A DNA stretch of 64,000 nt from Candidatus Amesbacteria bacterium (GCA_027371535.1 DAHXMV010000001.1:96879-160878); one strand, 5' to 3'. Numbered from the stretch's first letter, positions 18,635-63,767 are shown. The notes: generated from the letters alone by a model not told the origin. Numbers and translations: made by a program.

Positions 18635-18636
18635 AG

Positions 18637-43855: not shown

Positions 43856-43863
43856 AATCCAAA

Positions 43864-46972: not shown

Positions 46973-48281
46973 CCATCAGGATGGCGGAAATCACAGAAGT
47001 CTTCAGACTTTTCGAAATGCTGAAACCGATAATTTTTTTGGCGATAAAAAAGGGCACGAACGATGAAAAAGATATTATTCCGGCCGCCACAGCTATACCA
47101 AGATAACCGAATTTAACAGCTAAAATCGGTTTTAACAGCCATTCCAACACTAACCACATAATCATCAGACCCGTGTTTATTTTGGCCTTACCCAAGGCAT
47201 AGAGCGTATTAGTCAGGGGGGTTGAAAGACAGGAGAGCAGAGCGCTGAAACAATAAATATAAAGAGAGATGAGCGCCGGCTGCCATTTAAACCATTTGGG
47301 GACCAAAAACGCCAGATGGGACCAGGCCAGGGCAATACCAACCAGGGCCGGAAATATTACCAGACATATAAACTGCAGCAGTTTTTCTACCGACTTTCTG
47401 AATTCCTCGGGACGGGATTGCATCCGGGATAGGGCGGGAAACGCCACTTTGGTGGCATTATCCATTACCAGACGCTGAGGTATCTGACTGTAATAGAAAC
47501 CCCAACTAACCAGACCCATGCCGGCGGCCCCGACAATTTTCCATAAGAAAAGATTAACCACCTGATCTTTGGCTACGGCCAAAAGAGAATTGGTCTGATA
47601 CGGAACTCCGAATTTGAGCAGTTTTTTGAGCGAAGGTACGGAGAAAGCCAACCCAACAGGCCAGGGTTTAAAAATATAAATCAAAATCAGGCCGATCAGA
47701 CTCTGGGCCAGGACAGCCGGAACATAAGACATGACCCCCATCCCCCGGATGGCCAAAATGACGGCGATGATATTAAACGTCAGAGCTTCAACAATGCGAA
47801 CTGCCATAATCAAATCAAAACGCAGGGTCCTTTCCAGCATCACCGAAGGTACGGATTTTAAAGAGGACATGAAAAAACTGACCAAAAGGGCAATGAGCAG
47901 TGAAAACTCCGGATTCGCGAGACCATAATAGTTTCTGATGGCACCGGAAAATATAAATACCAAAAGCACTAAAGTTGTTACCAGAGCCTGCTGAATGGTA
48001 AAAGTCGTCCGGAGATCCGAAACGGAGAGCTGGTCCTTTTTTTGGATCAGAGAGGCGGCCAAACCGATATCGGAAAAATAACCGAGAATAACGATTATAT
48101 TTCCCACCAGTCCATACAGTCCGAATTCCTTGGGACCGAGATAGGTCGTCAAAAGCAAAACCCCCAAACCGGAAATTAATACCAGGATTACTCCCCCGCC
48201 GGTCAGGGTGGCCATACCCCTGACAGCCCGGGATTTAACCAAATTCAGGTCCACATCTTCTACCAGGCTATCCGGATCCAT
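46821..48281 (-). CDS. MOP-superfamily (Wzx-like) oligosaccharide flippase
   Basis: 486 aa and about 14 TM. N-terminal cytoplasmic segment then 'GMATLTGGGVILVLISGLGVLLLTTYLGPKEFGLYGL' is typical of polysaccharide biosynthesis/flippase proteins. Confidence 0.6.
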   Translation of the reverse strand: MDPDSLVEDVDLNLVKSRAVRGMATLTGGGVILVLISGLGVLLLTTYLGPKEFGLYGLVGNIIVILGYFSDIGLAASLIQKKDQLSVSDLRTTFTIQQALVTTLVLLVFIFSGAIRNYYGLANPEFSLLIALLVSFFMSSLKSVPSVMLERTLRFDLIMAVRIVEALTFNIIAVILAIRGMGVMSYVPAVLAQSLIGLILIYIFKPWPVGLAFSVPSLKKLLKFGVPYQTNSLLAVAKDQVVNLFLWKIVGAAGMGLVSWGFYYSQIPQRLVMDNATKVAFPALSRMQSRPEEFRKSVEKLLQFICLVIFPALVGIALAWSHLAFLVPKWFKWQPALISLYIYCFSALLSCLSTPLTNTLYALGKAKINTGLMIMWLVLEWLLKPILAVKFGYLGIAVAAGIISFSSFVPFFIAKKIIGFSISKSLKTSVISAILMVVTGVILYHTGLVMALLSATVVYVMAVYFIGGRQLLADIKPFYTHFRAKI

Positions 48282-48355: not shown

Positions 48356-49300
48356 ATGAAAATAGCTATTTATTCGCCCAAAGCAGCCTTTTCCGATTTC
48401 CTGGTGAAACGCCTGTCCAGCCTGGGTGAGATAATTTTTTCAGACACTTCCCAGGGGATGTCTGATAATGAATTGATTAAACTGGCGCAAGGAGCGGAGA
48501 TAATCGCACCGGATCCCGATAATTTCGGTGGCTTTGAGAAGGCCAAACCCCGGCTGACAAAGGTGATGGAAACCTTACCAAACCTGAGGGGGGTATGCCT
48601 GTCGACAACATCTTTCGGGTGGATTGATACTGATTACTGCAAGAAACGAAAAGTCCCGATCAGCAATGTGCCCGGCTATTCCGGAGAGTCGGTGGCCGAA
48701 CATGCCCTGGCACTGATGTTAAATCTGGCTAAAAATATTCTGATTTCCGACCGGAGATACCAGAAAGGCCGATATAAACTGCAAATGGGTTTTGAATTAA
48801 GAGGTAAAACGTTAGGAATAATAGGCCTCGGTAACATCGGCAGCCGGGTGGCGCAGTTGGGAATGGGAATCGGGATGAAAGTAATCGCCTGCAACCGGTC
48901 ACCCAAAACAATGGCGGGTGTAGAAATGACGACTTTTGAAGAAGTCCTAAAAAAAGCCGATGTGATTTCGCTGCACACTACCCACGAAAAGGCCAATAAA
49001 AATTTAATCGGCCAAAAACAAATCGCGTTGATTAAACCGGGGGCAATAATCGTCAATACCGTGGACCGGGAACTGGTGGATGAAGCAGTGATGGCCGAAG
49101 CCCTGAAATCCGGAAAAGTGTACGGGTATGCCCTGGAGGCAGAAGATTTGGAGCACGGACCGCTCTCCGGAGTGGAAAATGCCATTTTAATCAAAGGTTT
49201 TGGCTGGTATACCAGGGAAGCCCTGGAAAATTTATATCAGATTTGGGCGGATAACATTCAGGCTCTGGCAAAAGGAAAACCACAGAATTTAATTTATTAA
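48356..49300 (+). CDS. D-isomer-specific 2-hydroxyacid dehydrogenase family (NAD-binding)
   Basis: 'LRGKTLGIIGLGNIGSRVAQLGMGIGMKVIACNRS' Rossmann motif. C-terminal catalytic region 'ADVISLHTTHEKANKNLI...PGAIIVNTVDRELVDE'. Confidence 0.8.
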   Translation: MKIAIYSPKAAFSDFLVKRLSSLGEIIFSDTSQGMSDNELIKLAQGAEIIAPDPDNFGGFEKAKPRLTKVMETLPNLRGVCLSTTSFGWIDTDYCKKRKVPISNVPGYSGESVAEHALALMLNLAKNILISDRRYQKGRYKLQMGFELRGKTLGIIGLGNIGSRVAQLGMGIGMKVIACNRSPKTMAGVEMTTFEEVLKKADVISLHTTHEKANKNLIGQKQIALIKPGAIIVNTVDRELVDEAVMAEALKSGKVYGYALEAEDLEHGPLSGVENAILIKGFGWYTREALENLYQIWADNIQALAKGKPQNLIY

Positions 49301-49854
49301 ACCGGACGGATAATCAGAAATACCGTCAGACTATCTATAAATATTATATATAAAGGATAGGTTGATTCACCAATAGTCCAATTCGAGATAGCCAGGAGAT
49401 TTAAAACAGAAGCCAATATATCCAAAAAATAAAAAGTCCATACTTCAGTTTTCGGAAATTTGTAAGTTTTAATTAACATGGGGATTTGTCCGAACAAATC
49501 CGCCAGTATGGACGAGAATAATCCGAATAACGGATTAGTCGTTAATTGCCAAATGAAAATACCCAGCACTGAAATAATCAGGCAACCGAGATCGACTTTA
49601 GTCCAACCACCCATACCATATTTAAGACTTAACACAAAAACAGCCAGGCAACCGATTGCAAAAGCGCCTGATAACCAGACCGCTCCGGAACTACCCTGGG
49701 CGATTAAGGACCAGGTGGCAGTGATGGTAATTAATGCCAGAATAAATCTGGTAGTCCGGTGAGGTTTTGCCCTGCCTTGGAAAATTGCCCGGATGTAAAC
49801 AATATAAGATACCAAAGCCAACAAACTGCTACCACCAAGCAGAAGGTGTGTCAT
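49297..49854 (-). CDS. Integral membrane protein (185 aa, about 5-6 TM), unknown function
   Basis: Continuous hydrophobic segments. Diverges from the next gene with a 38-nt spacer. Confidence 0.45.
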   Translation of the reverse strand: MTHLLLGGSSLLALVSYIVYIRAIFQGRAKPHRTTRFILALITITATWSLIAQGSSGAVWLSGAFAIGCLAVFVLSLKYGMGGWTKVDLGCLIISVLGIFIWQLTTNPLFGLFSSILADLFGQIPMLIKTYKFPKTEVWTFYFLDILASVLNLLAISNWTIGESTYPLYIIFIDSLTVFLIIRPV

Positions 49855-49892: not shown

Positions 49893-50810
49893 ATGAACCC
49901 GGTACAGCTGCCGACCAATCAAAAGCTGGTAGGCAAGCTCAGGCAGGCGGCGTTTTTGGTGAATCTGACAGCCGTTCTGGTTTTGGGAATAGCTTTTTGG
50001 GGTGGATTGATTGTGCCCTTAGGAACCGCAATCCTGTTTTTAATAATTACCGGAGCGACGATATTTCATGCTACGGAAAGCTCCGGTGATAAAACTAAAA
50101 GATTGTTTATGGTTATTCCCGTGATTACGGGTTTATTGGTTGCGTTTGTCAGCAGCAACCTGTTTTGGTTACATCTTGAAGCCATCAGTTTTTATTCCTG
50201 GATAAGTTTTTTGTGTGTCGGGGCGGCCATCTCCATCCCATATCTGAAAATTATTGCGCACAGGTTTCACCCGGCCCAATTACTGGCTTTTTTTACCCTG
50301 GTACCGAATTTAATGTCTACCTTGGGAATGATTAATGTTGACAGGCAGATATTCTTTGTTTCGCTGATATTCACACTGGAAAGCCTGGCAATCCTTCTCA
50401 GGTGGCCCGGCAGGGGTTTTATGAGTGTATTTACCATTGAATCTGTCAGCAGTAAGCTGGCTTTTAAATTGCTGGCCGGCAGCCTGGTCCTGGTGCCGGT
50501 AATCGGATGTCTGGCGATCGTCTGGGGCAGCCTGGCAGACAGGAGTGTAAATGAAATTGCGGCCTTAATTACCGCCTCGGTGATGGCAATGATGATTATT
50601 CTGATTTGGATAAATATCCGGGCGGTAAAAAAAACCGAGCTGAACAATCTACTGTTTAAAGAAGAGTTGGTGGAACTTAATACTGATCTGAAACAGAACA
50701 ATGCCAGTTTGGCAAACCAGATGGAAGAATTGGAAAAGGTCAAACAGGAATTGGCTGACAGGTTAAATTACCAGGATAAATTCAGAGATATCGCCGAAGG
50801 ATTGGGATAG
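49893..50810 (+). CDS. Integral membrane protein (about 7-8 TM) with a C-terminal cytoplasmic coiled-coil tail
   Basis: 305 aa. The C-terminus 'ELNNLLFKEELVELNTDLKQNNASLANQMEELEKVKQELADRLNYQDKF' shows heptad-like periodicity. Confidence 0.45.
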   Translation: MNPVQLPTNQKLVGKLRQAAFLVNLTAVLVLGIAFWGGLIVPLGTAILFLIITGATIFHATESSGDKTKRLFMVIPVITGLLVAFVSSNLFWLHLEAISFYSWISFLCVGAAISIPYLKIIAHRFHPAQLLAFFTLVPNLMSTLGMINVDRQIFFVSLIFTLESLAILLRWPGRGFMSVFTIESVSSKLAFKLLAGSLVLVPVIGCLAIVWGSLADRSVNEIAALITASVMAMMIILIWINIRAVKKTELNNLLFKEELVELNTDLKQNNASLANQMEELEKVKQELADRLNYQDKFRDIAEGLG

Positions 50811-52419
50811 CAGGCAATGCCAGCCAGGACAGCAGACTGAGAAGATCACCGGCAGTTCTGACCGGGGTATTGCCAAAAACGGCGGTCAGAAGATGATCGC
50901 CCCGGCTGACATCTATCTGCATCCGGCCCAGCAGGGGGTCGCGGGCAGGATCAACGGCCACCCGTTTACCGTCCAACCAAACCCGCCAACCCGGAAAATA
51001 AAAGGTCTGGAGTTCAACAACGGCTGAAGAAGAAGCGATATTCAGGGAATATTGCTGATAATCCGAAGTTTTCTTAATCCGGGTATAAGTTCCGGTACCG
51101 CCGGTGATGCCCAAATCGCTTCCGGGAGGATTAACCGGAGGCAACGGGGCATAAATAGGCAGATAATCAAAAATACTCCCGGTAATCTGCAACCTCCAGG
51201 AATTACCCGAGAATTTTTGAGCATCGGACATGCCGGGAAACCATTTGTCAGGATGAAAATAACCCGCGTTAAGAATGAGCGTAAAAAACAATAACAAAGG
51301 CAGCCATTTTCCGGCCACGAGTGAAAAACAGCCGGCAATAAAAGCGGCCGAAAAAACGGCCAATGCCAGAAAACGCCAGGGGAACTGAAGATATTCCAAA
51401 GGCGTAATCTTTAACCAAATCGGCGTCGACCGGCTGTGGGTCATGAAAATGGCCGTAAGCGAAATCGTTAGCATTAGAATAATTAAATATTTATGCTGCC
51501 TGACAGACCGGGAAAAAATAATCAACAATCCGACAAGAAGAGGAATCAGCCACTGAAGATAGCCCAGATTGAAACTGAGGTGGTCCGTCTGGCCCAGATT
51601 ACTGGCACCATATCCCCAATTTATTATAAAAAAGATACGGTTTAAGGGTACAAAGTGGGCCAGGAAGTTGAAGTATCCCTCTACCAAAGATTCGATATGG
51701 GCGAATTTCTGTTCAAATAAAACCGGCAGGGTGAAAAAGGCCGCCAGACCAAAAGCCCAAACCGCAGAAAGAATTAAAGGTCCAAAAGAGGCCGGGGATT
51801 TGGTCCGCCAAACCCAAAAAAGGCACCAGATCACCAGGACCGGGGAAAAAATCATCAGTATGGGATTGTGGGACAGCATAAGCAGGGCGACTGATACAGA
51901 CAACCACGGCAAATACCTGAATTTTGAGGAACCGGAGATAAGTTTATAAGACAGCCAAAAAATGTAAGGGAAAAGCGCCATAGCCCAAAATTCATTCATA
52001 GCACCGCGGACATAAAAATCTACGGAATGGTAAGGGGCGTAGGTATACAAAACCGAAGACAACAAGCCGCCTTTTGAACCCCAGAACTCCCTGCCCAGTA
52101 AAAACATCCCCAGGGCGCAAACCACAAAACCCAAGATACCGACAATTTTGACAATATCAATATTCTGAAAACCTAAGTAATGGAAAGGCACTCCAAGAAG
52201 ATATGGCAGGGGGGGATAATAATTAAACAGGGGGTAACCAAATCCATATCCCATATCGGGAACCCAGCGACAGGGAATCTGGCCGTCGGCAAAACACTTA
52301 TTCATTTCCAGTTGCCGGGCTGCCTGTAAATCGTCATGCATGGTAAAATAACCTTTCTGAAATAAAGGACCGATAGCCGGAAGCAGAAGTATCAGCAAGA
52401 CTAGGAAAAACTTATTCAT
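50782..52419 (-). CDS. YfhO-like polytopic membrane protein (family B GT-C candidate)
   Basis: 545 aa. 'YFTMHDDLQAARQLEMNKCFADGQIPCRWVPDMGYGFGYPLFNYYPPLPY'. Confidence 0.45.
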   Translation of the reverse strand: MNKFFLVLLILLLPAIGPLFQKGYFTMHDDLQAARQLEMNKCFADGQIPCRWVPDMGYGFGYPLFNYYPPLPYLLGVPFHYLGFQNIDIVKIVGILGFVVCALGMFLLGREFWGSKGGLLSSVLYTYAPYHSVDFYVRGAMNEFWAMALFPYIFWLSYKLISGSSKFRYLPWLSVSVALLMLSHNPILMIFSPVLVIWCLFWVWRTKSPASFGPLILSAVWAFGLAAFFTLPVLFEQKFAHIESLVEGYFNFLAHFVPLNRIFFIINWGYGASNLGQTDHLSFNLGYLQWLIPLLVGLLIIFSRSVRQHKYLIILMLTISLTAIFMTHSRSTPIWLKITPLEYLQFPWRFLALAVFSAAFIAGCFSLVAGKWLPLLLFFTLILNAGYFHPDKWFPGMSDAQKFSGNSWRLQITGSIFDYLPIYAPLPPVNPPGSDLGITGGTGTYTRIKKTSDYQQYSLNIASSSAVVELQTFYFPGWRVWLDGKRVAVDPARDPLLGRMQIDVSRGDHLLTAVFGNTPVRTAGDLLSLLSWLALPAIPILRRYL

Positions 52420-53918
52420 GGCAATGTCTGCCGGACTTTAAAAAACAGTAAATAATCCCGCGAACCGTCCGGGTGAGCGGCTTTAGGGTAAGAATTAATT
52501 AATTCCAGGCCCAAATTATCGGGACTTCCCATAAAGCGGTTGGAATTAACCACCAGATAGACCCGGTTATCAACCAATGCGTTTTTGAGTTTTGGATCTA
52601 CAGACCGGATATCCAGCCCCACACCGATAACCCGGACTCCCGGTCTGTCATTTAAATACATCTGCAGAGCCGAAAATGGTGTCCCAAAATAGCCTTCTGA
52701 ACCCACCAGGATGTGGGTATTTGCCGGTAATCCGTGAAGATAATCCGAGACCTGCCTGAGGCCTGTACCGGCAGTCCAATCCTCCAGATAACCGGATCTT
52801 TCGTTTTCTGGTAATACGGCTTTGGCCGGGTTAACAATCAACAAACCATCTGAAACCAAACAAAGAAATACCAATAAGCCAAAAAGTATCATACCTAAAA
52901 AGTGTTTTTTGGTCCGGTCGCCGAAATGCCACAAACCATGGGCCATTAAAATGACGGCAAAAGGCACTGTAAATAACAGATATCGGGCGGTAAAAACTTT
53001 GGCAATGAAAGCCTGGCCCAGAACCGGTATCAACCACCAGGCAGCTAAAACGATCCGGGCCCGGACATGCTTTAATTCACCGTCAGCCAGGCCGAGCAGG
53101 GCCAAAAGCAAGCCTAACGGGGTAGTCAGATACAAATAAAAAGTCAGGGCATCTTTGATGTGCGGCAGGAGGGGATCCAGGGGATGTTTAATAATTTCAG
53201 ACAGCGGCCAGACATAGTCCCGGTTTCTGATACCGATCATGTAAAATTCAGGTCCCAGGCGCAAAATGTTGTACATGGCAAAACTGATAAAGAATGTCAC
53301 CAAAACCAACCCCACTGCCAACAATCTGGCTTTAAGAGGCCGGGTCCACCAACCGGAAAAAAATAAGGTCAACGGGATGAGAAAATAAGCAAATATAGCC
53401 GGGAATTTGGTGAGCCAGGCAAAACCCAGGGTAAAGCCGGCCAGCATGGCCAAATCCAGGCGAAGGCGTTGCAGCGCCAGCCAGGCAAAAACGAAAGTCC
53501 AGATCATAAACATCACCAGCATACCGTCGGCCAAGGCCATTCTTTCAAAAAACAGGGCATACGGCAGGACTGCCCAGATAGCAGCAGCAAAAAGGGCCAG
53601 GCGGTAATTTTTAAACAGGATAAAAGCCGCCATCCCCACGCCGATTACGGTCAGCAAACCGCATAAAGCCGAAACCGCTCTCCCGGCGATTAACGGATCG
53701 GAGATGAACTTCAGAAAGGGAATTACCGTCCACATAAACAGCGGTTGCTTACCGTCTGACAGAGGCAGAAAACGCAGGGTTGATTCTACCCGCATGACCT
53801 GGGACCACCTGACATATATGGATTCATCGGCAAAAACCGGCAGAGAATTCAGATTGAAAAACCTTAAAAAAGCACCTCCGATCAGAATCAATAAAGCCAA
53901 CAAAATCACCTGTTTCAC
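52416..53918 (-). CDS. ArnT-like (GT83/GT39 superfamily) GT-C glycosyltransferase
   Basis: 500 aa. 'FADESIYVRWSQVM' closely parallels the ArnT loop-1 'DETRYAEISREM' motif. About 11 further TMs. Confidence 0.6.
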   Translation of the reverse strand: MKQVILLALLILIGGAFLRFFNLNSLPVFADESIYVRWSQVMRVESTLRFLPLSDGKQPLFMWTVIPFLKFISDPLIAGRAVSALCGLLTVIGVGMAAFILFKNYRLALFAAAIWAVLPYALFFERMALADGMLVMFMIWTFVFAWLALQRLRLDLAMLAGFTLGFAWLTKFPAIFAYFLIPLTLFFSGWWTRPLKARLLAVGLVLVTFFISFAMYNILRLGPEFYMIGIRNRDYVWPLSEIIKHPLDPLLPHIKDALTFYLYLTTPLGLLLALLGLADGELKHVRARIVLAAWWLIPVLGQAFIAKVFTARYLLFTVPFAVILMAHGLWHFGDRTKKHFLGMILFGLLVFLCLVSDGLLIVNPAKAVLPENERSGYLEDWTAGTGLRQVSDYLHGLPANTHILVGSEGYFGTPFSALQMYLNDRPGVRVIGVGLDIRSVDPKLKNALVDNRVYLVVNSNRFMGSPDNLGLELINSYPKAAHPDGSRDYLLFFKVRQTLP

Positions 53919-53920
53919 AA

Positions 53921-54673
53921 CTAGATTTTATACGCTCCCCGGACAGAACGCCAACGGATGAGAAGCAGTTCCTTTAAACCGTTGACCGAGTCTTTGAAAA
54001 AAGATACCCGGTTACTCTCCCGGTGAGTCCAGAATACCGGAACTTCGGCAATCCGATGACCCATCCTACGGGCCAGAAACAGAAATTCCACATCGAAACC
54101 GGGATTGGTCGAAGGACCGCGGATGCTTTTGGGGGGGTGGGCGGCGGCAATAATTTTGAAAATTTTCACTGCCAGGTCAGTTGAAAAGGCTTTGAATCCG
54201 CATTGACTATCCCGAACCATAACCTGCAAAATCAGAGTCCGGAAAACGGGCATACCCAAGGCCAGTATCTGTCTATATAATGGGGCCCCTTTTCTTCCGG
54301 TCCGGGAACCGATAACGACCTGAAAACCCTGATCCAAAAGCGGTTTAAATTTGTCAAACTCAGAAATTGGAGTAGCCTGATCGGTGTCGGTAAAGAGTAA
54401 ATATTTTCCCAGGGCATTAAAAACCCCGGCGGCTACCGTGGCGGCTTTTCCCTGGTGAGGATTATCGATGACCCGAACACCCGGATGATGAGCAGAAAAA
54501 GCCTGAATTATTTTCAGCGTGTCATCGGTTGAGCCATCATTGACCAGCAACATCTCCCAAGTAAAAACCCGGCTTTTCAGATAATCACAGACTTGCTCCA
54601 GACTCCCTTTTTTCAGGTTGTCAGCTTCGTCATAGAGGGGAATGATGACTGATAAATATGGTTTTGTAGTCAT
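53921..54673 (-). CDS. GT2 polyprenyl-phosphate sugar synthase (Dpm1/GtrB-like)
   Basis: 'LSVIIPLYDEADNL...LLVNDGSTDDT', 'HQGKAATVAAG', 'DTDQATP', 'DSQCGFKAF'. Confidence 0.8.
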   Translation of the reverse strand: MTTKPYLSVIIPLYDEADNLKKGSLEQVCDYLKSRVFTWEMLLVNDGSTDDTLKIIQAFSAHHPGVRVIDNPHQGKAATVAAGVFNALGKYLLFTDTDQATPISEFDKFKPLLDQGFQVVIGSRTGRKGAPLYRQILALGMPVFRTLILQVMVRDSQCGFKAFSTDLAVKIFKIIAAAHPPKSIRGPSTNPGFDVEFLFLARRMGHRIAEVPVFWTHRESNRVSFFKDSVNGLKELLLIRWRSVRGAYKI

Positions 54674-54674
54674 T

Positions 54675-56144
54675 TTATCTGGTAAACCCGAACAGAGGAT
54701 CTGTGAGATTGGCGTCAGGTCCCTGACAGCTTATTTTAACAGTTTGGGCAGAATACCGCTGATAGTCCGGGAGAATTAATCCCAACGCACCGTAGGTTTT
54801 ATCCAGGTGATTGACCAGACTATGCGGAAAAACGATGGTATAAACCGGGCTGCCGCTTTTGGGCTGGTTAACATGCAAATGCACTAAATAGAAAAAATAG
54901 CGGTAGCCCAGGTTGTAACCGGGATTGGTGATATATGACACGGAAACGCATGGGTAACCATGCAGTTTGGCATCAGCGGCAATCTGAGCCGTGAGAGCTT
55001 TTTTCTCCAGGTAACCGAAACGGTTGATATTGGAAGTAAAAAACAAGTAAAGATTGTAATAAATAATAAGGGTGATCAAACCCAGTGACAGAAATTTCAG
55101 AATTCTATACTGCCAGAGACAGTCTAAAAGCAAGGCAGTGATGATCACCCAAAGAATATTGAGACTGTTTAAATAATATTCGGAAAGATTCAAAGACTGC
55201 AGGGCAAAGAAAATAATATTAAGAATCAGCCAGACCGGGACGATGAATAAATAAAAACCGGGAAGACGCTTTTTTGCCAGCAGATAAATGAAAGCCGCAA
55301 TCAGAAGCAGGGGCAGGATGTATACAGAGACGGAATGGGGGTTATCCCAGAAAATAGTGTTGATATTTTTAGAAACATAATCCCCGACGTGGACAATTTT
55401 ATCTGCCAAGTCTGATTTTATCGACCCCGATGATACCATGGTAGAAAACAGGGCCCGGGTTTGGATAAAATGATGTTTGATTTCAAACAGCCATAACGGA
55501 GAGGATAAGAAAAACAAAACCAATAGAGGCCTGACAAAATCCCGGAGGGTAAAATGGCGCCGATTTAATAAGCCGGCAATTAAAACCAGCGGGAAAGTGA
55601 GGAACAGGGCAAGATTAATGTTCCAAACCAAAGCAAACAGGACTGCCAGCCAAATCAGAGCTGATTTTTGGCCCTGAAACAAGCGGTGAATGAAATATAA
55701 AAACCAGACTGACCAGAGCATAACCGGAGTGGTGGGCACCATTTCCCTTTCAGTCTGAGAGATGGTGAAAGAGACAGCATAAATCAATACGGCAAAATTG
55801 GCGGCCGAGGATGAAAATAATTTTTTAGTCACGATGTAGACACTAAATATTGCTGCCATGCCCACAAATAACGGGAAAGCCAAACCACCAACCGGATCCA
55901 TACCGGTAAACAGGTAGAAAGGAATCAGCAGGTAATAAAAAAGCGGACCGATAAAAATACCCGGAGAGGAGGTTTCCTGGCCGATAAGCCTGAGGTGGTG
56001 GTCAACGACTATGTCTTTGACTATCCAGGACGCTAAATCCCCGTCATGAGCGTATAAAAACCTCTCCTCAAGCTGCCATCCCCGGGTAACCAAACCCAAA
56101 ATTAAAGCTGCCAGAAAAAGCCAGGAAAAGGTTTTGGATTTCAT
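54675..56144 (-). CDS. ArnT/GT83-like GT-C glycosyltransferase (family D paralog)
   Basis: 489 aa. 'YAHDGDLASWIVKDIVVDHHLRLIGQETSSPGIFIGPLFYYLLIPFY'. Confidence 0.6.
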   Translation of the reverse strand: MKSKTFSWLFLAALILGLVTRGWQLEERFLYAHDGDLASWIVKDIVVDHHLRLIGQETSSPGIFIGPLFYYLLIPFYLFTGMDPVGGLAFPLFVGMAAIFSVYIVTKKLFSSSAANFAVLIYAVSFTISQTEREMVPTTPVMLWSVWFLYFIHRLFQGQKSALIWLAVLFALVWNINLALFLTFPLVLIAGLLNRRHFTLRDFVRPLLVLFFLSSPLWLFEIKHHFIQTRALFSTMVSSGSIKSDLADKIVHVGDYVSKNINTIFWDNPHSVSVYILPLLLIAAFIYLLAKKRLPGFYLFIVPVWLILNIIFFALQSLNLSEYYLNSLNILWVIITALLLDCLWQYRILKFLSLGLITLIIYYNLYLFFTSNINRFGYLEKKALTAQIAADAKLHGYPCVSVSYITNPGYNLGYRYFFYLVHLHVNQPKSGSPVYTIVFPHSLVNHLDKTYGALGLILPDYQRYSAQTVKISCQGPDANLTDPLFGFTR

Positions 56145-57628
56145 AGTGCGATACGGATCCGTTTTGAGACCGTAATCCCGCCGAATTTCACAGTCGCCCC
56201 GGGAGTGGCAATCCCCGCCTGGCGGGCCAGCCAGGCAGTCAGTCTTTCAGGGTGGGGAGTATCAACTTCCGATAAGGTGTAAAGCAGGGGCCGGAGATGA
56301 GTATCGGGCACGGTATGATATTTGGTAGTCCCCTGCCAGAGAAAGAGATAATCATAGGCGTAGGGAATAACCGGCGGGACATAAACATCAACATTAAACG
56401 GCGTACTGCCGGCGTCGGCATAAACCCAGTCAACCGCTTTTAATGAGGCTCCCAAGACTATCTCCGTCGGGCCGTCCGTCCCGGCAGACAGGTAATTTCT
56501 GAGATGGAAAAGATTTGTAGCCAGAAAAAGACAAACCAGAAAGCTGGCTAAAATGGTAAATAATCGGGTTTTCTCAGCCGAAGCAACCAATATTTCCGCT
56601 ACCAATAAGACAAACAGGGAAAAGATCCCCGTGAAATAATAATCCCAGACATAGCCGTTGTTACCGTGATAAAAAAGCAGGAGAAGTAAAGGAGTGGCAA
56701 TAATTATGGCCAATGCAGCAGTTGAACGATTCATAAACCGCTTAAAATTAAACAGCAGCATGGTAGCAGTCACGGTAAAGAACAGAATTGCCCAGGATCT
56801 GTCGAGCAGCAACTTCTGGGAAAATGAATCAAAATAAAAAGCCAGTCTTTGGGTATAAAAACCGCTCAGAACAGGGGTAAAACTTTTTTCGGAAACCAGA
56901 AAACGTTTAAAAGCATTAACCAGCAGGTTATCGTGCCGGTAATTAAAATAGAGCTGGGGAAGCAGAGTCAGGCAAAAAAGAAACACCGAAAACAGTAATT
57001 TGAAGTTCCAATTTACGTGTTTGCGAAAGATGATTAAAATTAACAGGGTAGCCGGCAGGAAAAAGACCGCGGAAGCGGCTTCACACTGCAAACCCAAACC
57101 AAGGCTCAGTCCCAGCAACAGCCACGACCAGACAGATTTTGAACCATGGATTAATTTCAGGAGGCAATAAACCGCCAGGGCGGTAAAGAAAGGCAGGGGG
57201 GTAGGATTGGAAAGCCAGCGATGGGCCTGGGTTAACGGCAATGAGAAGGTAATAAAAAATGCCGCCAGTAAACCGATGCTTTTATCAAAAAAGTCCCGAC
57301 CAATCAGATAGATCAGATAAATACCGGCTACATTTATCAATGCCAGAGCAAAAGAAGCCGCTACCGGATTGCCGTTTCCCAACCAATAGAAAGGCGTGAT
57401 CAAATAATAATAAAACGGCCCCAAAAAGATACCCTCAATACCGGTAGTGGGACCGATAAGAAAAAATTTATGCTGATGAATCAAGTTCCAGACCACCAGG
57501 GCGTCACGCCCCTGATCGTAATAAAATCCGGTCAAATCCCCGGCCCGATAAGTTCTGAGAAAAAGGGCGGTCAGAAGTATAACCAGAAGCAGCCAGCTTT
57601 TTTGAGAAATAATTTTTAATAATTTCAT
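56141..57628 (-). CDS. ArnT/GT83-like GT-C glycosyltransferase (family D paralog)
   Basis: 495 aa. 'FYYDQGRDALVVWNLIHQHKFFLIGPTTGIEGIFLGPFYYYLITPFY'. Confidence 0.6.
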   Translation of the reverse strand: MKLLKIISQKSWLLLVILLTALFLRTYRAGDLTGFYYDQGRDALVVWNLIHQHKFFLIGPTTGIEGIFLGPFYYYLITPFYWLGNGNPVAASFALALINVAGIYLIYLIGRDFFDKSIGLLAAFFITFSLPLTQAHRWLSNPTPLPFFTALAVYCLLKLIHGSKSVWSWLLLGLSLGLGLQCEAASAVFFLPATLLILIIFRKHVNWNFKLLFSVFLFCLTLLPQLYFNYRHDNLLVNAFKRFLVSEKSFTPVLSGFYTQRLAFYFDSFSQKLLLDRSWAILFFTVTATMLLFNFKRFMNRSTAALAIIIATPLLLLLFYHGNNGYVWDYYFTGIFSLFVLLVAEILVASAEKTRLFTILASFLVCLFLATNLFHLRNYLSAGTDGPTEIVLGASLKAVDWVYADAGSTPFNVDVYVPPVIPYAYDYLFLWQGTTKYHTVPDTHLRPLLYTLSEVDTPHPERLTAWLARQAGIATPGATVKFGGITVSKRIRIAL

Positions 57629-59085
57629 GAGCCGGTGGGGTTATGAACTAAACGGTAAACCACGACCCCCCAGGGAAATTCCCATTGTTTATCGATCCTG
57701 GCCCAGCCGAAAGCCGCGATTTCCCACAGAGGATTACCTACCGGATGACACGGGGTCTCTTCGCAGATGACAAACAGCTGATCGGTCAGTTTTTCATGGA
57801 TGGTAACATTAGAACTATTCAAAAGGGCCAATTCATAGCGATAACCGGCGTCATAGTTATTTTTCGAGAGCAGGGCCAGATTGAAGGGAATTCCGGCAGT
57901 CTGATCGGTGATGAAGTAGGCAATTTTTTGGGTATGGACAAGTTGGGAATTTGGAGCAAATTTTAAAGGATTATGCTGAAGGTTAACCAGCGCCAATAAT
58001 ATAAACAGAACAACCGATACGGCTTGTGCAGCCAGGCGGCGGCTGAAGGACTGCAGCCAAAAACCCAAAAGCAGAAACGGAACCGGGAAAAGAAATCCGT
58101 AATAGTGGATATAAATATGCTGTTTATACAGGCCCAAACCCAGCAAGCCGAAGCCCAACCAGGTCAGGGTAAAGATAAATTGGGAGGAGATTTGCCTTTT
58201 TATCAATCTGATCAGCGTAAAGAAAACCAGTAACAATGACAACAACCAACCCAGGAAATAATTTTGAGCGGTTAACAAACCCGAGACAAGGTCATTCCAG
58301 ATCGGCCAGAGGTTGGGCATGGCTTTGTAAATCCTGAGGTTGACCGTATTACCCCGGTTGGTTAAAAAAGTGACCAGGGCATGGAAATTTGTCCATCCAT
58401 GGCGCATATCAAATATCACCAGCGGGGACATTAACAAAATAAAAATCAGCACGGATGCAAGAAGTAAGGGATAGGATTTATGAAGCTGTTTGGATAAAAA
58501 CAAAAAAATAACCACGGTCGGAAACAGCAGCAAGCCAAGATAGTGGGAATTCAAAACAAATGCCAGACAGACACCAATTACGGGTAACCACCGGGGGTCG
58601 TGCCGGCGCCAAAAAAGCCAGGTACCATACATAGCCAGCAAGGCAAAAAAAGGCATGATATTGGGATTCCAGGATGAACGGGAATAAGTTATGACTACCG
58701 GAGAGATGGCATACAAAAATGAAATACCCAAACCGATTTTCGGACCAAACCACGATCTGGCTATCCACCACAACAGGGCGACAGTCAATATGCCGATGAC
58801 CGCGACTTCACCGGCCAGACCCACCGGAGAAAAACCTGCCAGCCAAAGCGACGGAGCCACCAGATAATAATAGAGCGGACCCAAATACATGCTGCCTACC
58901 GAAGTCCCCGGACCGATTAAAGGAAAATGCTTCCCCAGGACAATATCCCTGACAGCCAGCGCATCACGGCCTTCATCACCCAAAAAGGTCATGTATTCAG
59001 AAATTCTATATAATCTGAAGACAGACCCCGCCACCAGAATCAGGGTGAGGAAGAGAATTTCAATTTTGGTGATTTTTAGAGTCAT
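57625..59085 (-). CDS. ArnT/GT83-like GT-C glycosyltransferase (family D paralog)
   Basis: 'FLGDEGRDALAVRDIVLGKHFPLIGPGTSVGSMYLGPLYYYLVAPS'. Start at 'MTLKITK' (rc ATG at 59083-59085) gives a 4-nt overlap with the upstream gene. The alternative start at 59100 would overlap by 19 nt. Confidence 0.6.
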   Translation of the reverse strand: MTLKITKIEILFLTLILVAGSVFRLYRISEYMTFLGDEGRDALAVRDIVLGKHFPLIGPGTSVGSMYLGPLYYYLVAPSLWLAGFSPVGLAGEVAVIGILTVALLWWIARSWFGPKIGLGISFLYAISPVVITYSRSSWNPNIMPFFALLAMYGTWLFWRRHDPRWLPVIGVCLAFVLNSHYLGLLLFPTVVIFLFLSKQLHKSYPLLLASVLIFILLMSPLVIFDMRHGWTNFHALVTFLTNRGNTVNLRIYKAMPNLWPIWNDLVSGLLTAQNYFLGWLLSLLLVFFTLIRLIKRQISSQFIFTLTWLGFGLLGLGLYKQHIYIHYYGFLFPVPFLLLGFWLQSFSRRLAAQAVSVVLFILLALVNLQHNPLKFAPNSQLVHTQKIAYFITDQTAGIPFNLALLSKNNYDAGYRYELALLNSSNVTIHEKLTDQLFVICEETPCHPVGNPLWEIAAFGWARIDKQWEFPWGVVVYRLVHNPTGS

Positions 59086-59792
59086 CGAAGCTGGTACCAC
59101 AATTTCAACAGATCACGGATACTTCTGATAATGACCTTTAAATCGGCACCGGTATTATGGCCGAACCGGCGGGGGTAATGATGAACCCTAACCTGGGCAA
59201 ATTTAAATCCCATACGCTGGGCTTTGGTTAACATTTCAATCTGAGTCACTTTCTCCTCGCCGATTAAGGGTTGGACGCCGGTATACACTTTTTTATTGAT
59301 CAATTTATATCCGCAGGAATAATCAGTCACTTTCAAACCCAGGAGGATTCTGGGTAACAGTTTGGACCAGACAAACGTATAAAACTTGCGGATAAAGGCA
59401 TCTGCCCTGCCGATGCGGATACCCAGTACCAAATCCGCACCGGTCAGCTTTTGAGCTTCAATAAATAATTTAATTTCCGAAAAATCAAACTGGCCATCCG
59501 AATCCATAAAGGCCACCCACTGAAAACGGGACGTCTCATAGCCGCTTTTTAAAGCACCGCCGTAACCGCGATTCGGATGATGATGGACGACCCGGACATG
59601 TTTGTTTTTAGCCGCCATCGTGTCGGAAATTCCGCCTGTCCGATCACTTGACCCGTCATCCACAATAATTACCTCCCATTTACCGGCAACCCCGGGGAGG
59701 ACAGCGAGGACCCCATTGACTGTTTTTTCGATATTTTTTTCCTCATTGTAAGCCGGCAGAAACACTGATAACTCGTCAATAAGCTTTGTCAT
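59082..59792 (-). CDS. GT2 polyprenyl-phosphate sugar synthase (GtrB/ArnC/Ppm1-like)
   Basis: 'LSVFLPAYNEEKNIEKTV...VIIVDDGSSDRT', 'NRGYGGALKSG', 'DSDGQFD', 'DYSCGYKLI'. Confidence 0.8.
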   Translation of the reverse strand: MTKLIDELSVFLPAYNEEKNIEKTVNGVLAVLPGVAGKWEVIIVDDGSSDRTGGISDTMAAKNKHVRVVHHHPNRGYGGALKSGYETSRFQWVAFMDSDGQFDFSEIKLFIEAQKLTGADLVLGIRIGRADAFIRKFYTFVWSKLLPRILLGLKVTDYSCGYKLINKKVYTGVQPLIGEEKVTQIEMLTKAQRMGFKFAQVRVHHYPRRFGHNTGADLKVIIRSIRDLLKLWYQLR

Positions 59793-59828: not shown

Positions 59829-61535
59829 TTGGAATATAATCAGAAGGTGGTAAAAAAGAATTTACTGGTGCTGGGGGTAATGATAATCCTGACATTTCCG
59901 GCATGGAAAGCACTCAGGCATATGGGAATGATTTCCGGGCATGATACCCAGGCGGCGGTTTTCAAAGGGGAAGAGTTTTTTAATGCTATAAAAGACGGCA
60001 GTTTTCCGCCCAGATGGTCAAAAAGGCTGGATTTTGGATTAGGGCAGCCAACTTTTACTTTTACCTATTCCATGCCCTATTACCTGATGTCTGCAATTAT
60101 GTTTTTAAACAGCGGACCCATATGGGCATTTAAGATTGTCATGGCTGCCAGTTTTCCTTGCGGTGCATTCTTTACCTTTCTGTGGCTGAAAAAACATTTC
60201 GGTGGCTTACCGGCTTTTTTAGCCAGCCTGCTTTATGCCTATTTACCATATCATTTTGCCAATGTCTATGTCCGGGGCGACATCGGAGAAACCGTAGCTG
60301 CTGCCTGGTTACCGCTGGCTTTCTGGGGATTGGACAGGGTAATCGACTCCCCAACCCCGGCTAAAACGGCGGTGGCTGCCCTAACCGTGGCAGCGGTAAT
60401 AATCAGTCATCCGTTTTACGGTTTGGTTTTCGGGGCGATCTGGACCGGTTATATATTATTGAGAAGCCGGAAGAATATCCAAGCATTGAAAATGGCAATG
60501 ACTGCTCTGATATGGGGATATGTCTGTTGTGCCTTTTATATAATTCCGTCGCTGGTTTATAAAAATATGACTTTTTTAAGCAGGCTGGAAAGTTATTTTA
60601 TTGAAAAGCAATATTTTGTGACTTTGGACAGAATTTTTTATTCGCCGTGGGGCTTTGACGGGGCTAATGAGTTGGACAGGCGGCCGATGTCGGTCCAGGC
60701 GGGATTGGTCGCATGGGGCTTTTTTACCGGCTGGTTAGGAATTGCATTATTATCAAAGAAAGTCAGAAAAGACAGACATTTTTATGAAGGACTTTATTTT
60801 TCCATGCTGACTGTTGCGGCTGTTTTTTTGATGCTTTCTATAAGCCTGCCGGTGTGGAAATTATTATCCCCCATGGAAAACCTACAGTTTCCCTGGAGAC
60901 TGTTATTTGTAGTCAATATCGGAATGACATATCTGGCCGGATTTGTGTTGAGATATCTGGCCGGGATTTTAAAACAAAATAAAATCAAATTACTCGTCTT
61001 TACCGGATTAGCGGGGCTGATAATTATTGCCAGCAGAAGTTACTGGAGTGTAGGCCGGTATTTTCCGTATGTTGATCTGACCCGCGAGGCCATCGGTTAT
61101 CCGGGGACTTTGACAATGCTTTTGGAGGAAACCCCGGTCTGGCATAGCCGGAATCAGGAAGCTAACCCGCATAATTTCATCCAAAATGCCGAAGGCCGGG
61201 CAATATTACTGACAATGCTGGTTTGGAAAACCAATTATCACAAGTTTCTGGTGGTGACGGATAAACCGATTGCAGTTAACGATAAGACTCATTTCTGGCC
61301 GGGCTGGAAAGTATGGGTGGACGGAGTGGCTTCTCCGACTTTGGATCCGTTTGCTAAAATCAGCCAGGGATTAATTACCTTCAGGGTTGGTCCGGGGACA
61401 CATATAGTAGAGACCAGACTGACGGAAACCGGGGTAGAACAAACTTCGGATTCCATAAGTCTGATCAGTATTTTCGGAGCAGTCGCCATCAGTCTCCCGG
61501 GAGTGCTAAGATTGAAAAGGCATGACACAGTTTAG
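59829..61535 (+). CDS. YfhO-like polytopic membrane protein (family B GT-C candidate)
   Basis: 568 aa. 'MISGHDTQAAVFKGEEFFNAIKDGSFPPRWSKRLDFGLGQPTFTFTYSMPYY'. Confidence 0.45.
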   Translation: MEYNQKVVKKNLLVLGVMIILTFPAWKALRHMGMISGHDTQAAVFKGEEFFNAIKDGSFPPRWSKRLDFGLGQPTFTFTYSMPYYLMSAIMFLNSGPIWAFKIVMAASFPCGAFFTFLWLKKHFGGLPAFLASLLYAYLPYHFANVYVRGDIGETVAAAWLPLAFWGLDRVIDSPTPAKTAVAALTVAAVIISHPFYGLVFGAIWTGYILLRSRKNIQALKMAMTALIWGYVCCAFYIIPSLVYKNMTFLSRLESYFIEKQYFVTLDRIFYSPWGFDGANELDRRPMSVQAGLVAWGFFTGWLGIALLSKKVRKDRHFYEGLYFSMLTVAAVFLMLSISLPVWKLLSPMENLQFPWRLLFVVNIGMTYLAGFVLRYLAGILKQNKIKLLVFTGLAGLIIIASRSYWSVGRYFPYVDLTREAIGYPGTLTMLLEETPVWHSRNQEANPHNFIQNAEGRAILLTMLVWKTNYHKFLVVTDKPIAVNDKTHFWPGWKVWVDGVASPTLDPFAKISQGLITFRVGPGTHIVETRLTETGVEQTSDSISLISIFGAVAISLPGVLRLKRHDTV

Positions 61536-62601
61536 ACCGGGGTTAAAAACTTTATTAGGGGTAGCCATTTTAAGTACGCTGGCGATATGGGTGGTCTTGG
61601 GGATGCCAAAAATTTATCAGAACTACGACGGGCCTTTTTATCTGGTGGTAGCCAAAGCCTGGTACAACAAAGACTTAATAAGGCACAGTTTTTCTTTTGC
61701 CCTGCCGCTGGAATATTACCCGGCGCATTTTCCCCTTTATCCAATGCTTATTGACCTGTTTGCGCTGGCTTTTTTAAATCATCTGCAGGCCATGGTGGCA
61801 GTCAATTTAATTATCTCAGCTGCCGGGGCGGCGGTAATATACAAAACGGCAGAAAAAATGAGATGGGAGAGCCCTTTCTGGACGGGTTTGGCCTGGTTAT
61901 TCTGGTGGCCCAGGATGTGGGCCGTACGCAGTGTCGGCAGTCCGGAATCGTTATTTGTTACAGCCATCGTCTTATCCTTATACTTTTTCGGCAAAAGAAA
62001 ATACTGGTTAGCGGGTTTGGCGGGGTCTGCAGCGATGCTGACTAAAAGTCCGGGGATATTGCTGCTGGCGGCTTTTGGCATGTGGCTCGTGGTAAATTAC
62101 ATTAAAACAAAAAAATGGGATAAAGATATTTGGCCGGTGGCACTAATCGGGCTGACGGCACTGGGCCTATTTTATTTTTTCTATCTGAAAACCGGTGACT
62201 TCATGGCATATTTTCACACCGGTGACAACATTCATCTGCAGATTCTGCCGTTTCGGGTTTTTGACAGCAGCCAGTTATGGGTAGGTAGTTTCTGGCTGGA
62301 AGATATCATTTGGATATACCTGATTGCCGGGATCGGAGTATACAGGGCCTTGAAAAAGAACCTGGTGTGGGGAGGGTTTGGGCTGATATTTTACCTGACG
62401 TTACTCTTTGTATCCCATAGGGATATCAGCCGGTATAGCCTGCCGCTGGTACCCGTGGTGCTTTTGGGATTTTCCGATTTGTTAGCCAGAAAGGAAGTAA
62501 AATGGGCTTTGGCATTAGCCATTATCCCCTTGTTTTTCTACACCCTAAACTTTGTGAATAACAATACGCTGACAATTGCCAACTGGGCCCCGTTTCTTTA
62601 A
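61522..62601 (+). CDS. PIG-V/GT76-like integral membrane mannosyltransferase candidate (second copy)
   Basis: 359 aa. 'YDGPFYLVVAKAWYN...YYPAHFPLYPMLIDLFA' parallels the 'DGVHFILIATHGY...AFFPLYP' motif of the protein at 9206-10339. Confidence 0.4.
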   Translation: MTQFRPGLKTLLGVAILSTLAIWVVLGMPKIYQNYDGPFYLVVAKAWYNKDLIRHSFSFALPLEYYPAHFPLYPMLIDLFALAFLNHLQAMVAVNLIISAAGAAVIYKTAEKMRWESPFWTGLAWLFWWPRMWAVRSVGSPESLFVTAIVLSLYFFGKRKYWLAGLAGSAAMLTKSPGILLLAAFGMWLVVNYIKTKKWDKDIWPVALIGLTALGLFYFFYLKTGDFMAYFHTGDNIHLQILPFRVFDSSQLWVGSFWLEDIIWIYLIAGIGVYRALKKNLVWGGFGLIFYLTLLFVSHRDISRYSLPLVPVVLLGFSDLLARKEVKWALALAIIPLFFYTLNFVNNNTLTIANWAPFL

Positions 62602-62609: not shown

Positions 62610-63767
62610 CTACGCCCGGGGTTTTTTCTGCCAGATAAATTTGTTGTAGATAAACCAGTTATAAGGGACGGTAAAACCGAAAACAGCCAAAACCAGAAAT
62701 AGCGTCCGGTACCGGTCCCCGAAAACCTGAGTCCCCAAACCGATAATCAAAGAAGGAACTAATATTCCGCCTAATACCGAGGAGAAATTAAACGCCAGGA
62801 ATTTGGAAATTAATTGGGAAACCCTGGAAATTTTGTCCTGGGAGAAAGTCCAGAGGTTGTTGAAAATAAAATTGGAGATAATGGAAATTTCAGCCGCAGT
62901 TGCATTAGCTAAAAAATTAATCACACCAATGGGAAACGGTAAACCGGAATACGTCTTATTAAAATATATCAAACCCAGGTAATTGATGACAAATCCAAAA
63001 CCGCCGACCACCCCGAATTTGAAAAATTTAATCGTCGCGGGGTTGTGCAGTTGAATTAGAAAAATAACCCTAATGGTTTCCTGCATCTCGTTTTTGATAA
63101 TTTTGGATTTACCTTCAGTGCGGGGGGAAAAGTGAAAAGGCAGTTCTTTAACCCGGGCCCCTTTCTGAACCATGTAATGCAGGAGCTGGACTTTGTAGGC
63201 AAAACTTTTAGAATACAGAGCGGAAAAATCAAACTGATCCATAAATCCCTTTACACGGGAGAGTTTAAAACCCCCGGTTACGTCATGCACCCCAAGGGTC
63301 AGCAAACCTACACGGCCAACCAGATTGCCGACTACGCTTAAAAATTTCCGGTCAAAGCTCCAGGCGCCGGGAATGGATCCTCCCGGGATATACCGGGAGG
63401 CAATAATATAGTCAAAACCACGGTCTATCTGTTCTATCATCCGGGGAATATCCCGGGGAGGATGCTGGAAATCAGCGTCGAATTCCATTAACCAATCAGC
63501 GTGCATTTTTTTCATGGCATAAGTCATTCCCCGGGCATAGGCCACACCCAAACCCTGCTTTTGACTGCCGCCCAACAAGTGCAGCCAGGGGTATAAACGC
63601 ATGGCTTTTTCCACTTCCAGGGCTGTGCCGTCGGGGCTGGAATCATCCACATATAGGACTTCAACATCATGTTTGGGAATCAGGGGGATTATTTCTGCCA
63701 GGGTACTGATCATTTCCCGGGTGTTTTTCCGTTCATTATATGTGGGGATGATAATAACAATTTTCAC
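62610..63767 (-). CDS. Fusion protein: Dpm1-like GT2 polyprenyl-phosphate sugar synthase with a C-terminal GtrA-like 4-TM domain
   Basis: N-terminus 'IVIIIPTYNERKNT...VLYVDDSSPDGT', 'FDADFQHPP', 'DVTGGFK'. C-terminus 'KFFKFGVVGGFGFVINYLGLIYF...ANATAAEISIISNFIFNNLWTF' (GtrA-family signature). Confidence 0.75.
   Translation of the reverse strand: MKIVIIIPTYNERKNTREMISTLAEIIPLIPKHDVEVLYVDDSSPDGTALEVEKAMRLYPWLHLLGGSQKQGLGVAYARGMTYAMKKMHADWLMEFDADFQHPPRDIPRMIEQIDRGFDYIIASRYIPGGSIPGAWSFDRKFLSVVGNLVGRVGLLTLGVHDVTGGFKLSRVKGFMDQFDFSALYSKSFAYKVQLLHYMVQKGARVKELPFHFSPRTEGKSKIIKNEMQETIRVIFLIQLHNPATIKFFKFGVVGGFGFVINYLGLIYFNKTYSGLPFPIGVINFLANATAAEISIISNFIFNNLWTFSQDKISRVSQLISKFLAFNFSSVLGGILVPSLIIGLGTQVFGDRYRTLFLVLAVFGFTVPYNWFIYNKFIWQKKPRA

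Follow-up and report, generated by a model that had tools for sequence, protein, structure and literature searches.

A class-wide conserved module of predicted polyprenyl-phosphate sugar synthases and GT-C glycosyltransferases in Microgenomatia, with recurrent fusion of a synthase to its GT-C partner

In three-component systems of extracytoplasmic glycosylation, a GT2 polyprenyl-phosphate sugar synthase is combined with a GT-C glycosyltransferase, and a lipid-linked monosaccharide made inside the cell is used outside (PMC11127046, PMC7389260). These systems (GtrA/GtrB/Gtr* of Shigella and Salmonella, CsbB/GtcA/YfhO and GtlA/GtlB of Bacillus and Listeria, and GacI/GacL of streptococci) are the closest known to an operon which we have analyzed in a 64-kb stretch of DNA from Candidatus Amesbacteria. 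The whole stretch, hereafter called the window, is part of the 153-kb metagenomic contig ENA ERZ27233560, and the operon consists of seven minus-strand open reading frames (ORFs) encoding, in order, a GT2 (GT2a), three related GT-C proteins (D1, D2, and D3), a second GT2 (GT2b), a further GT-C (GTC5), and a PTPS_related membrane protein (table 1). As in three-component systems, synthase and GT-C are encoded together. However, the latter systems have a 1:1:1 composition and are serotype-converting accessories, whereas the module combines several GT-Cs with two or three synthases in one operon and forms a conserved core of its class; moreover, it contains no stand-alone GtrA/GtcA flippase gene, its synthases have no transmembrane (TM) helices of their own, and one of them is linked to its GT-C by translational coupling or fusion. 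The best explanation for these features is that the module represents a variant of three-component glycosylation, with TM-less synthases, a synthase-GT-C complex, several specialized GT-Cs, and no dedicated flippase of GtrA type.

Mycobacteria and corynebacteria possess GT-C sets that use decaprenyl-phosphate-mannose or -arabinose. Such sets (PimE, MptA-C, EmbA-C, and AftA-D) resemble the module in having many paralogous GT-Cs, presumably dedicated to one linkage each, which are served by few polyprenyl-phosphate donors, and the window also encodes GT87/PimE-like and PIG-V-like members. Unlike them, the module belongs to an unrelated lineage, contains PMT_2 and PTPS_related subfamilies, and has its genes crowded into a single island within a very small genome. 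In mycobacterial Ppm1, a catalytic polyisoprenyl-glycosyltransferase (PI-GT) is tethered by a membrane partner, the Lnt-like domain (Ppm1 D1). The human type-II DPMS, DPM1-DPM2-DPM3, likewise has a TM-less catalytic PI-GT tethered by a separate membrane partner, since DPM3 anchors DPM1 to the membrane (PMC5526996). The module would follow the same design, except that the tether is the downstream GT-C itself, instead of the small DPM3 or the Lnt-like domain.

Taking sequences and structural models together, we consider it likely that Microgenomatia, a class of the candidate phyla radiation (CPR/Patescibacteria), possess a pathway of extracytoplasmic glycosylation whose conserved core is the module and in which lipid-linked sugars are made inside the cell and used outside. 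GT2a and GT2b would each move one sugar from a nucleotide sugar to polyprenyl phosphate on the cytoplasmic side of the membrane. Having no membrane helices of its own, GT2a would be held there by D1, with which it is translationally coupled in the window and, in many relatives, joined into a single polypeptide; in such fusions, the amphipathic helix at the C-terminus of the GT2 would pass straight into the first TM helix (TM1) of the GT-C. The lipid-linked sugar would then be flipped across the membrane and used by D1, D2, D3, the ArnT/PMT-type GTC5, and the PTPS_related protein, each GT-C attaching it to a different site of an acceptor on the cell surface. This acceptor is most likely a lipoglycan or a glycopolymer of the cell wall, produced by the surrounding Wzx, GT2, and GT4 genes. 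The enzyme activities, the identity of the sugars, the pairing of donors with GT-Cs beyond GT2a-D1, the flippase, and the acceptor are, in this scheme, those that we infer. The type of pathway is already known; what is unusual is the physically coupled form of synthase and GT-C, and its recurrent fusion and fission is the most interesting element of the module, offering a specific and testable pair of enzymes. The scheme also creates a puzzle: How does the lipid-linked sugar cross the membrane without a dedicated flippase being encoded? Of all the steps in three-component glycosylation, flipping is, to our knowledge, the one understood least.

The module is conserved throughout the class and is not a local novelty. 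Our synteny set comprises 81 related loci from species-level genomes, in 62 of which the core gene order is contiguous; recurring so often, this order cannot be attributed to chance. It is shared across Microgenomatia, being present in Amesbacteria, Woesebacteria, Shapirobacteria, and Blackburnbacteria, and almost all sequences homologous to D2, GT2b, or the GT2a-D1 fusion come from Patescibacteria of the Microgenomates group, the closest ones from Candidatus Amesbacteria. Species-level genomes encoding a relative of D2 number 254. The recurrent order begins with a DPMS-type GT2 carrying a GtrA domain, followed by a 359-aa membrane protein on the opposite strand, GT2a and D1 (separate or fused), D2, and facultatively D3; it continues with GT2b, in some loci a second GT2b-like gene, GTC5, the PTPS_related gene, a Wzx gene, and a gene for a membrane protein of approximately 580 aa. 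The DPMS-type gene lies upstream of the module in nearly all loci, the ortholog of the 359-aa protein is located on the opposite strand between it and GT2a in almost every locus, and PTPS_related follows GTC5 in 64 of the 81. Whereas D1 and D2 are found in nearly all loci, D3 varies in occurrence, directly following D2 in 31 loci (~40%). Although these genes are widespread in public data, they appear there under generic annotations only, and our literature search on GT-C systems of CPR bacteria or GT2::GT-C fusions found no relevant paper. Despite the tiny genomes of CPR/Patescibacteria, which rely on contact of their surface with a host, an island of 64 kb holding 20 or more GT-C-like genes would here serve envelope glycosylation. 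Because the operon is the part of this island conserved across the whole class, it offers a good entry point to the core surface glycan of these organisms.

The recurrent fusion of GT2a with D1 is strong evidence that the two proteins work together at the membrane, where D1 would serve as the anchor. In loci L004 and L005, the orthologs of GT2a and D1 form a single GT2::PMT_2 protein of 736 aa, and a search with this fusion retrieved more than 100 protein clusters of 710-750 aa with PF00535 plus PF13231, from Amesbacteria, Woesebacteria, and other Microgenomates. Among the 81 related loci, GT2a and D1 are split in 51 and fused in 21. In the window the two genes interlock, the stop codon of GT2a and the ATG start of D1 forming ATGA, and their products are collinear with the fused orthologs, the C-terminal helix of GT2a ending where the fusions continue; the link between GT2 and TM1 is direct in one clade of fusions and contains an insert of 11 residues in the other. 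The general logic of the original prediction, in which donor synthases feed GT-C transferases, is strengthened by such widespread fusions, and GT2a-D1 is the only one among the possible synthase/GT-C pairings that has direct evidence. An assembly frameshift is an unlikely cause of the split form, since an identical protein is present in NCBI, Logan, and ENA assemblies and 51 of the 81 loci have split genes with start codons of their own.

A neighbor-joining tree of D1, which carries no support values, tentatively indicates that the ancestral D1 was split from GT2a, that a single fusion occurred at the base of an Amesbacteria-like clade with an independent fusion elsewhere, and that within that clade the two were split again at least three times, once in the lineage of the window. 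The histories of the two partners are discordant: In comparisons that include loci L008, L066, L051, and L084, GT2a of the window shares 62-71% identity with its counterparts in genomes where D1 is only 41-56% identical, whereas the GT2 accompanying the nearest D1 relatives has only 36-47% identity to GT2a of the window. This disagreement suggests that the donor-synthase cassette has been exchanged independently of its GT-C partner. One could go further and regard GT2a plus D1 as an obligate holoenzyme, in which the TM bundle of D1 replaces the anchor of the synthase, receives, and possibly translocates, the polyprenyl-phosphate-sugar, and thereby channels synthesis, flipping, and transfer without a separate flippase of GtrA type. 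We regard this joint reading as doubtful; if it were true, the discordant phylogenies would mean that cassettes for the donor sugar have been swapped while the transferase scaffold stayed fixed. Other domain orders also exist among close representatives of the GT2a family, namely GT2::GtrA, GT2::GtrA::PMT_2, and PMT_2::GT2. For example, P0408 (923 aa) has the order GT2::GtrA_DPMS_TM::PMT_2, with synthase, putative flippase domain, and GT-C in a single chain, and P0384 (673 aa) is a reversed PMT_2::GT2 fusion. Further apparent fusions, for which assembly errors are possible, join GTC5 with PTPS_related in L019 (~1061 aa) and PTPS_related with a D1-like protein in L060 (~1038 aa).

The nature of the acceptor has to be considered within the genomic context, for by its gene content the whole window reads as a glycosylation island. 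It holds at least 20 GT-C-like genes (PMT/PMT_2, GT87 of PimE-like type, PIG-V-like, PTPS_related, and YfhO), a density that is remarkable for a CPR genome, together with approximately 13 GT2, three GT4, a methyltransferase, an acyltransferase, and three Wzx-type (Polysacc_synt) flippases at 4058-5359, 6367-7641, and 46821-48281; three Wzx in 64 kb imply several glycans linked to undecaprenyl diphosphate (Und-PP). Just beyond the end of the window (L001 1-5400), trmD and a complete rmlABCD set for dTDP-rhamnose adjoin the DPMS-type gene, an arrangement that is maintained in L002 and makes rhamnose a likely component of the glycan. Could the acceptor instead be a protein? With the same mechanism, the GT-Cs would then be protein O-glycosyltransferases acting on Ser/Thr-rich secreted, pilus, or S-layer proteins, as the PMTs of actinobacteria and eukaryotes or the GtrB/PgtC2 pair of streptococci. 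In favor of a protein acceptor are the importance of cell-surface proteins to CPR bacteria as episymbionts and the Pfam matches, which belong to the PMT and PMT_2 families. A precedent also exists, for streptococci are reported to glycosylate disordered regions of membrane proteins via a GtrB-made sugar linked to undecaprenyl phosphate and GT-C enzymes (PMC12041528). However, the PMT_2 family is broad and also includes enzymes that modify lipids and glycans, the operon lies inside a locus of polysaccharide type, with the three Wzx, many GT2 and GT4, methyltransferase, and acyltransferase genes and rmlABCD just outside the window, Wzx directly follows the module in relatives, and no candidate acceptor protein was identified. 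Hence we consider a protein acceptor possible but rather unlikely; it would be compatible with the mechanism proposed here, for which a glycan acceptor is preferred.

On the basis of sequence and modeling, GT2a and GT2b are assigned with confidence to the polyprenyl-phosphate glycosyltransferases of the ArnC/GtrB/DPMS class, not to chain-elongating GT2s, because of their sequence and structure matches in the PDB, their conserved lipid-phosphate arginines, and the different behavior of control GT2s. The polyprenyl-phosphate acceptor features on which the original prediction hinged are present. The top PDB sequence matches were ArnC, GtrB, and PfDPMS for GT2a and GtrB and ArnC for GT2b, at an identity of only 20-25%. 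PfDPMS (E 1e-10 with GT2a, 1e-8 with GT2b) ranked behind ArnC and GtrB for both, which are thus closer to the latter enzymes than the 'Dpm1-like' label originally attached to them implied; this label best suits the DPMS-type gene, which matches PfDPMS at E 9e-40 over residues 1-369, that is, over its full length. Hence the neighborhood has three predicted donor synthases, not two. The NCBIfam models aligning full-length with GT2a and GT2b are ArnC, dolichyl-phosphate hexose transferase, AglJ, and PpgS. AlphaFold2 (AF2) models had a predicted local distance difference test (pLDDT) score of 92.8 for GT2a and 88.9 for GT2b, and when they were compared with the PDB by Foldseek, the first 22 matches of GT2a were all ArnC, DPMS, or GtrB, with a query TM-score (TMq) of 0.6-0.82, as were the first 23 of GT2b; the leading matches of both models had TMq 0.7-0.82, and soluble GT2s ranked only thereafter. 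The control GT2s of the window (38307 and 28060) match GmaR, SunS, and heparosan/chondroitin synthases instead of the ArnC/GtrB/DPMS class. In all-against-all BLAST within the window, full-length similarity joins only GT2a, GT2b, 5708-6370, and the DPMS-type protein, the remaining GT2s being similar over the N-terminal half only.

Residues known to handle the lipid phosphate, acceptor loop, or nucleotide point in the same direction. They are R122 and R200, plus R125, K132, and A136, in GtrB (PMC4728340), R117, R131, S135, and R202, with the motif DADLQH, in PfDPMS (PMC5526996), and D48, N77, D100/D102, Q104, R128, R131, R137, S141, and R205 in ArnC (PMC12690121). By HMMER alignment, the ArnC residues correspond in this order to D46, N74, D97/D99, Q101, R126, R129, R135, T139, and R208 of GT2a, while R124, R127, R134, and A138 of GT2b align with R122, R125, K132, and A136 of GtrB. 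The majority of these positions show no or almost no variation among homologs. In an alignment of 39 GT2a homologs, R208 does not vary, while R126 and R135 are at least 90% conserved, with D97, R129, and T139 falling outside the listed conserved columns; in one of 41 GT2b homologs, the four aligned residues are invariant, and R222 is taken as the acceptor-loop arginine from its position alone. Like ArnC, GtrB, and PfDPMS, both proteins have a GT-A fold with the DxD-x-Q motif, in the form D97-S-D99-G-Q101 in GT2a (D99 and Q101 invariant) and D96-T-D98-Q99 in GT2b (D96, D98, and Q99 invariant), and their AF2 models have helices at the positions of the juxtamembrane (JM) helices JM1 and JM2 (133-151 and 218-235 in GT2a; 132-149 and 225-244 in GT2b). 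Unlike those enzymes, they end right after JM2 without TM1/TM2 and the C-terminal β-hairpin, and therefore tetramerization of ArnC/GtrB type is not expected; hydrophobic-segment prediction found no TM helix in either. Orthologs of GT2b are labeled 'dolichyl-phosphate beta-glucosyltransferase' by JGI, and this ALG5-like naming makes glucose a possible sugar for GT2b.

Several observations weigh against the proposed pathway. Only helix 218-235 of GT2a has a hydrophobic moment (muH) above that of shuffled sequences (0.76, 0/2000 shuffles), the other three juxtamembrane helices being not significant. GT2b has no fusion or other direct tie to a particular GT-C among the loci and clusters examined. 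No stand-alone PF04138 (GtrA/GtcA) flippase gene is present in the operon or its flanks; at the locus, PF04138 is confined to the DPMS-type protein, where it forms the C-terminal TM domain. Neither the D2 profile nor the single GTC5 sequence (phmmer, E<=1) found a match in the PDB. Finally, there are GT4::GT2 forms among the relatives of GT2a, which would also suit a cytoplasmic role. The last finding is one of those favoring an alternative in which GT2a and GT2b are ordinary cytoplasmic GT2s elongating an oligosaccharide linked to Und-PP, with the donors for the GT-Cs coming from elsewhere, for instance from the complete DPMS-type synthase next door. Lack of TM helices in the two proteins agrees with this alternative, and GT-A folds are all similar, chondroitin polymerase, GpgS, and WrtF appearing later in the Foldseek lists with E values of ~1e-11. 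We nevertheless consider it improbable, given that the first 22-23 structural matches are exclusively polyprenyl-phosphate glycosyltransferases, that the lipid-phosphate arginines are conserved, that full-length similarity in the window is restricted to the four proteins mentioned above, that control GT2s do not match this class, and that fusions to GT-C and GtrA domains are widespread.

Since there is no detectable sequence match to solved structures, membership of the operon proteins in the GT-C class rests on Pfam profiles and topology. D1, D2, D3, and GTC5 all exceed the gathering score of PF13231 PMT_2 (26.1 bits), and D2 (27.3 bits) and GTC5 also that of PF02366 PMT (22.7 bits); the proteins are polytopic, with 7-11 hydrophobic segments (~10 in D1, 10 in GTC5). 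After TM1, their orthologs conserve acidic residues in loop 1, namely DEGRD in D1, DQGRD in D2, HDxD in D3, and (A/G/V/N)DE in GTC5, within signatures that hold across genomes: TFLGDEGRD for D1, GF[YW][YF]DQGRDA for D2, HDxDL..W for D3, and F.DE[SA]IY[VI]RW for GTC5. In D2, D38-Q-G-R-D42 is invariant among the aligned homologs. Each GT-C of the operon thus combines its own fixed acidic signature with a divergent C-terminal half. The original prediction had described three tandem 'DQGRDA' paralogs, a description that fits D2 (DQGRDA) and D1 (DEGRDA) but not D3, which has HDGDLA; the exact pattern D[EQ]GRDA is also found outside the operon, in 32932-34443. Two other names need to be narrowed. 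The 'ArnT-like' GTC5 retrieved no ArnT chain (phmmer vs PDB, E<=1) and no ArnT model of NCBIfam, only a weak Agl23, and its likeness to ArnT is, as far as sequences tell, only at the level of the PMT/PMT_2 clan plus the DE motif. Similarly, the resemblance of the last operon gene to YfhO holds only at clan level; Pfam recognizes it as PF10131 PTPS_related and not as PF09586, the YfhO of the window being 30633-32927; its paralogs in the window, found by BLAST, are at 16979 and 59829.

The duplications that produced these GT-Cs are old and the copies appear functionally distinct, since they form separate clades, have their own loop-1 signatures, and have C-terminal halves that cannot be aligned with one another. 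D1, D2, and D3 are 23-32% identical; in BLAST the value is 25-32%, with similarity only over roughly the first 155-250 residues. By comparison, the operon genes have 1:1 orthologs, in the same order and with 50-62% identity, in the closest loci L002 and L004 (D3 being absent from L004), full-length orthologs of D2 are 40-71% identical within Microgenomatia, and those of GTC5, always downstream of GT2b, retain 57-62% identity in Amesbacteria-like loci and ~37-50% farther off. In a tree of D1, D2, D3, and GTC5 from 16 genomes, computed with capped Kimura distances, each paralog is monophyletic in 50/50 bootstraps, the window proteins 32932 and 42467 joining D2 and D1, respectively. The in-situ duplication put forward in the original prediction, if taken to mean that D1-D3 are recent tandem copies, redundant or diverging, could draw upon their adjacency, shared orientation, similar length, and common N-terminal architecture, but it is contradicted by the low identity confined to their N-terminal halves, the 1:1 orthologs at 50-60% in L002/L004, the paralog tree with its separate clades across Microgenomatia, and the fixed signatures, and must be considered extremely improbable.

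Table 1. Genes of the operon and adjoining glycosylation genes, with positions counted from the first nucleotide of the window.
Feature	Position	Strand	Length	Assignment
GT2a	59082..59792	-	236 aa	TM-less polyprenyl-phosphate glycosyltransferase (predicted donor synthase); PF00535
D1	57625..59085	-	486 aa	GT-C, PF13231 PMT_2 50.3 bits; loop-1 signature TFLGDEGRDA; probable partner of GT2a
D2	56141..57628	-	495 aa	GT-C (PMT_2/PMT), PF13231 52.3 bits; loop-1 GF[YW][YF]DQGRDA
D3	54675..56144	-	489 aa	Divergent GT-C paralog, PF13231 29.9 bits; loop-1 [YF]xHDxDLxxW
GT2b	53921..54673	-	250 aa	Second TM-less polyprenyl-phosphate glycosyltransferase (predicted), ALG5-like; PF00535
GTC5	52416..53918	-	500 aa	GT-C, PF02366 44.2 + PF13231 40.4 bits; ArnT/PMT-type loop-1 motif FADESIYVRW
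PTPS_related GT-C-like membrane protein	50782..52419	-	545 aa	PF10131 33 bits; last operon gene
DPMS-type GT2	62610..63767	-		Predicted third donor synthase with GtrA/DPMS TM domain; PF00535 + PF04138
Divergent membrane protein	61522..62601	+	359 aa	Weak PMT_2; AZOBR_p60025-like
Lineage-specific PTPS_related GT-C	59829..61535	+		PF10131 45.6 bits; between the 359-aa gene and GT2a

The ORF table reproduces exactly the gene order and minus-strand coordinates initially proposed for the seven genes. They are tightly packed, with overlaps of 4 nt at GT2a/D1, D1/D2, D2/D3, and GTC5/PTPS_related and gaps of 1 nt between D3 and GT2b and of 2 nt between GT2b and GTC5; for D1, the ATG at 59085 is the start used by the public assembly, and the longest ORF reaches a GTG at 59100. 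A scan for promoters and terminators between 49200 and 60200 gave the same counts as chance, and the single promoter-like site upstream of GT2a (59909-59880) carries no evidential weight. With respect to the recurrent order, the window has the additional PTPS_related gene on the plus strand, found at this place among relatives only in L007-L009, lacks the second GT2b-like gene, and contains three unrelated genes that separate the operon from Wzx. Two ORFs of this region, 49893-50810 and 49297-49854 (185 aa, five TM), have no Pfam match, and their counterparts are absent between module and Wzx in the relatives; the former, on the plus strand, encodes 305 aa with six TM and converges on the last operon gene, overlapping its 3' end by 29 nt. 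The protein encoded by 45149-46972 (607 aa, ~10 TM, no Pfam match), which directly follows Wzx in most relatives, is a candidate polymerase, ligase, or further GT-C.

Elsewhere in the window, the region 9206-46972 is rich in GT-Cs (e.g., 12183-24975, 40876-42480, 20812-23410, 32932-35614, and 42467-45225), including a family of six members at 12183, 13799, 15420, 18637, 23311, and 40876 with 25-34% identity. The first 6,000 positions (1-6000) have a G+C content of 0.32-0.38, compared with ~0.45 elsewhere, and encode an acyltransferase, a GT2, a GT4, and a Wzx-type flippase; this region may represent a glycan cassette that is variable or was acquired horizontally. Many GenBank third-party annotation (TPA) records of metagenome-assembled genomes that bear the module (e.g., L007, L009, and L010) are titled 'uncultured Gammaproteobacteria bacterium', and one 'Clostridia bacterium'; evidently, these titles are placeholders or wrong labels.

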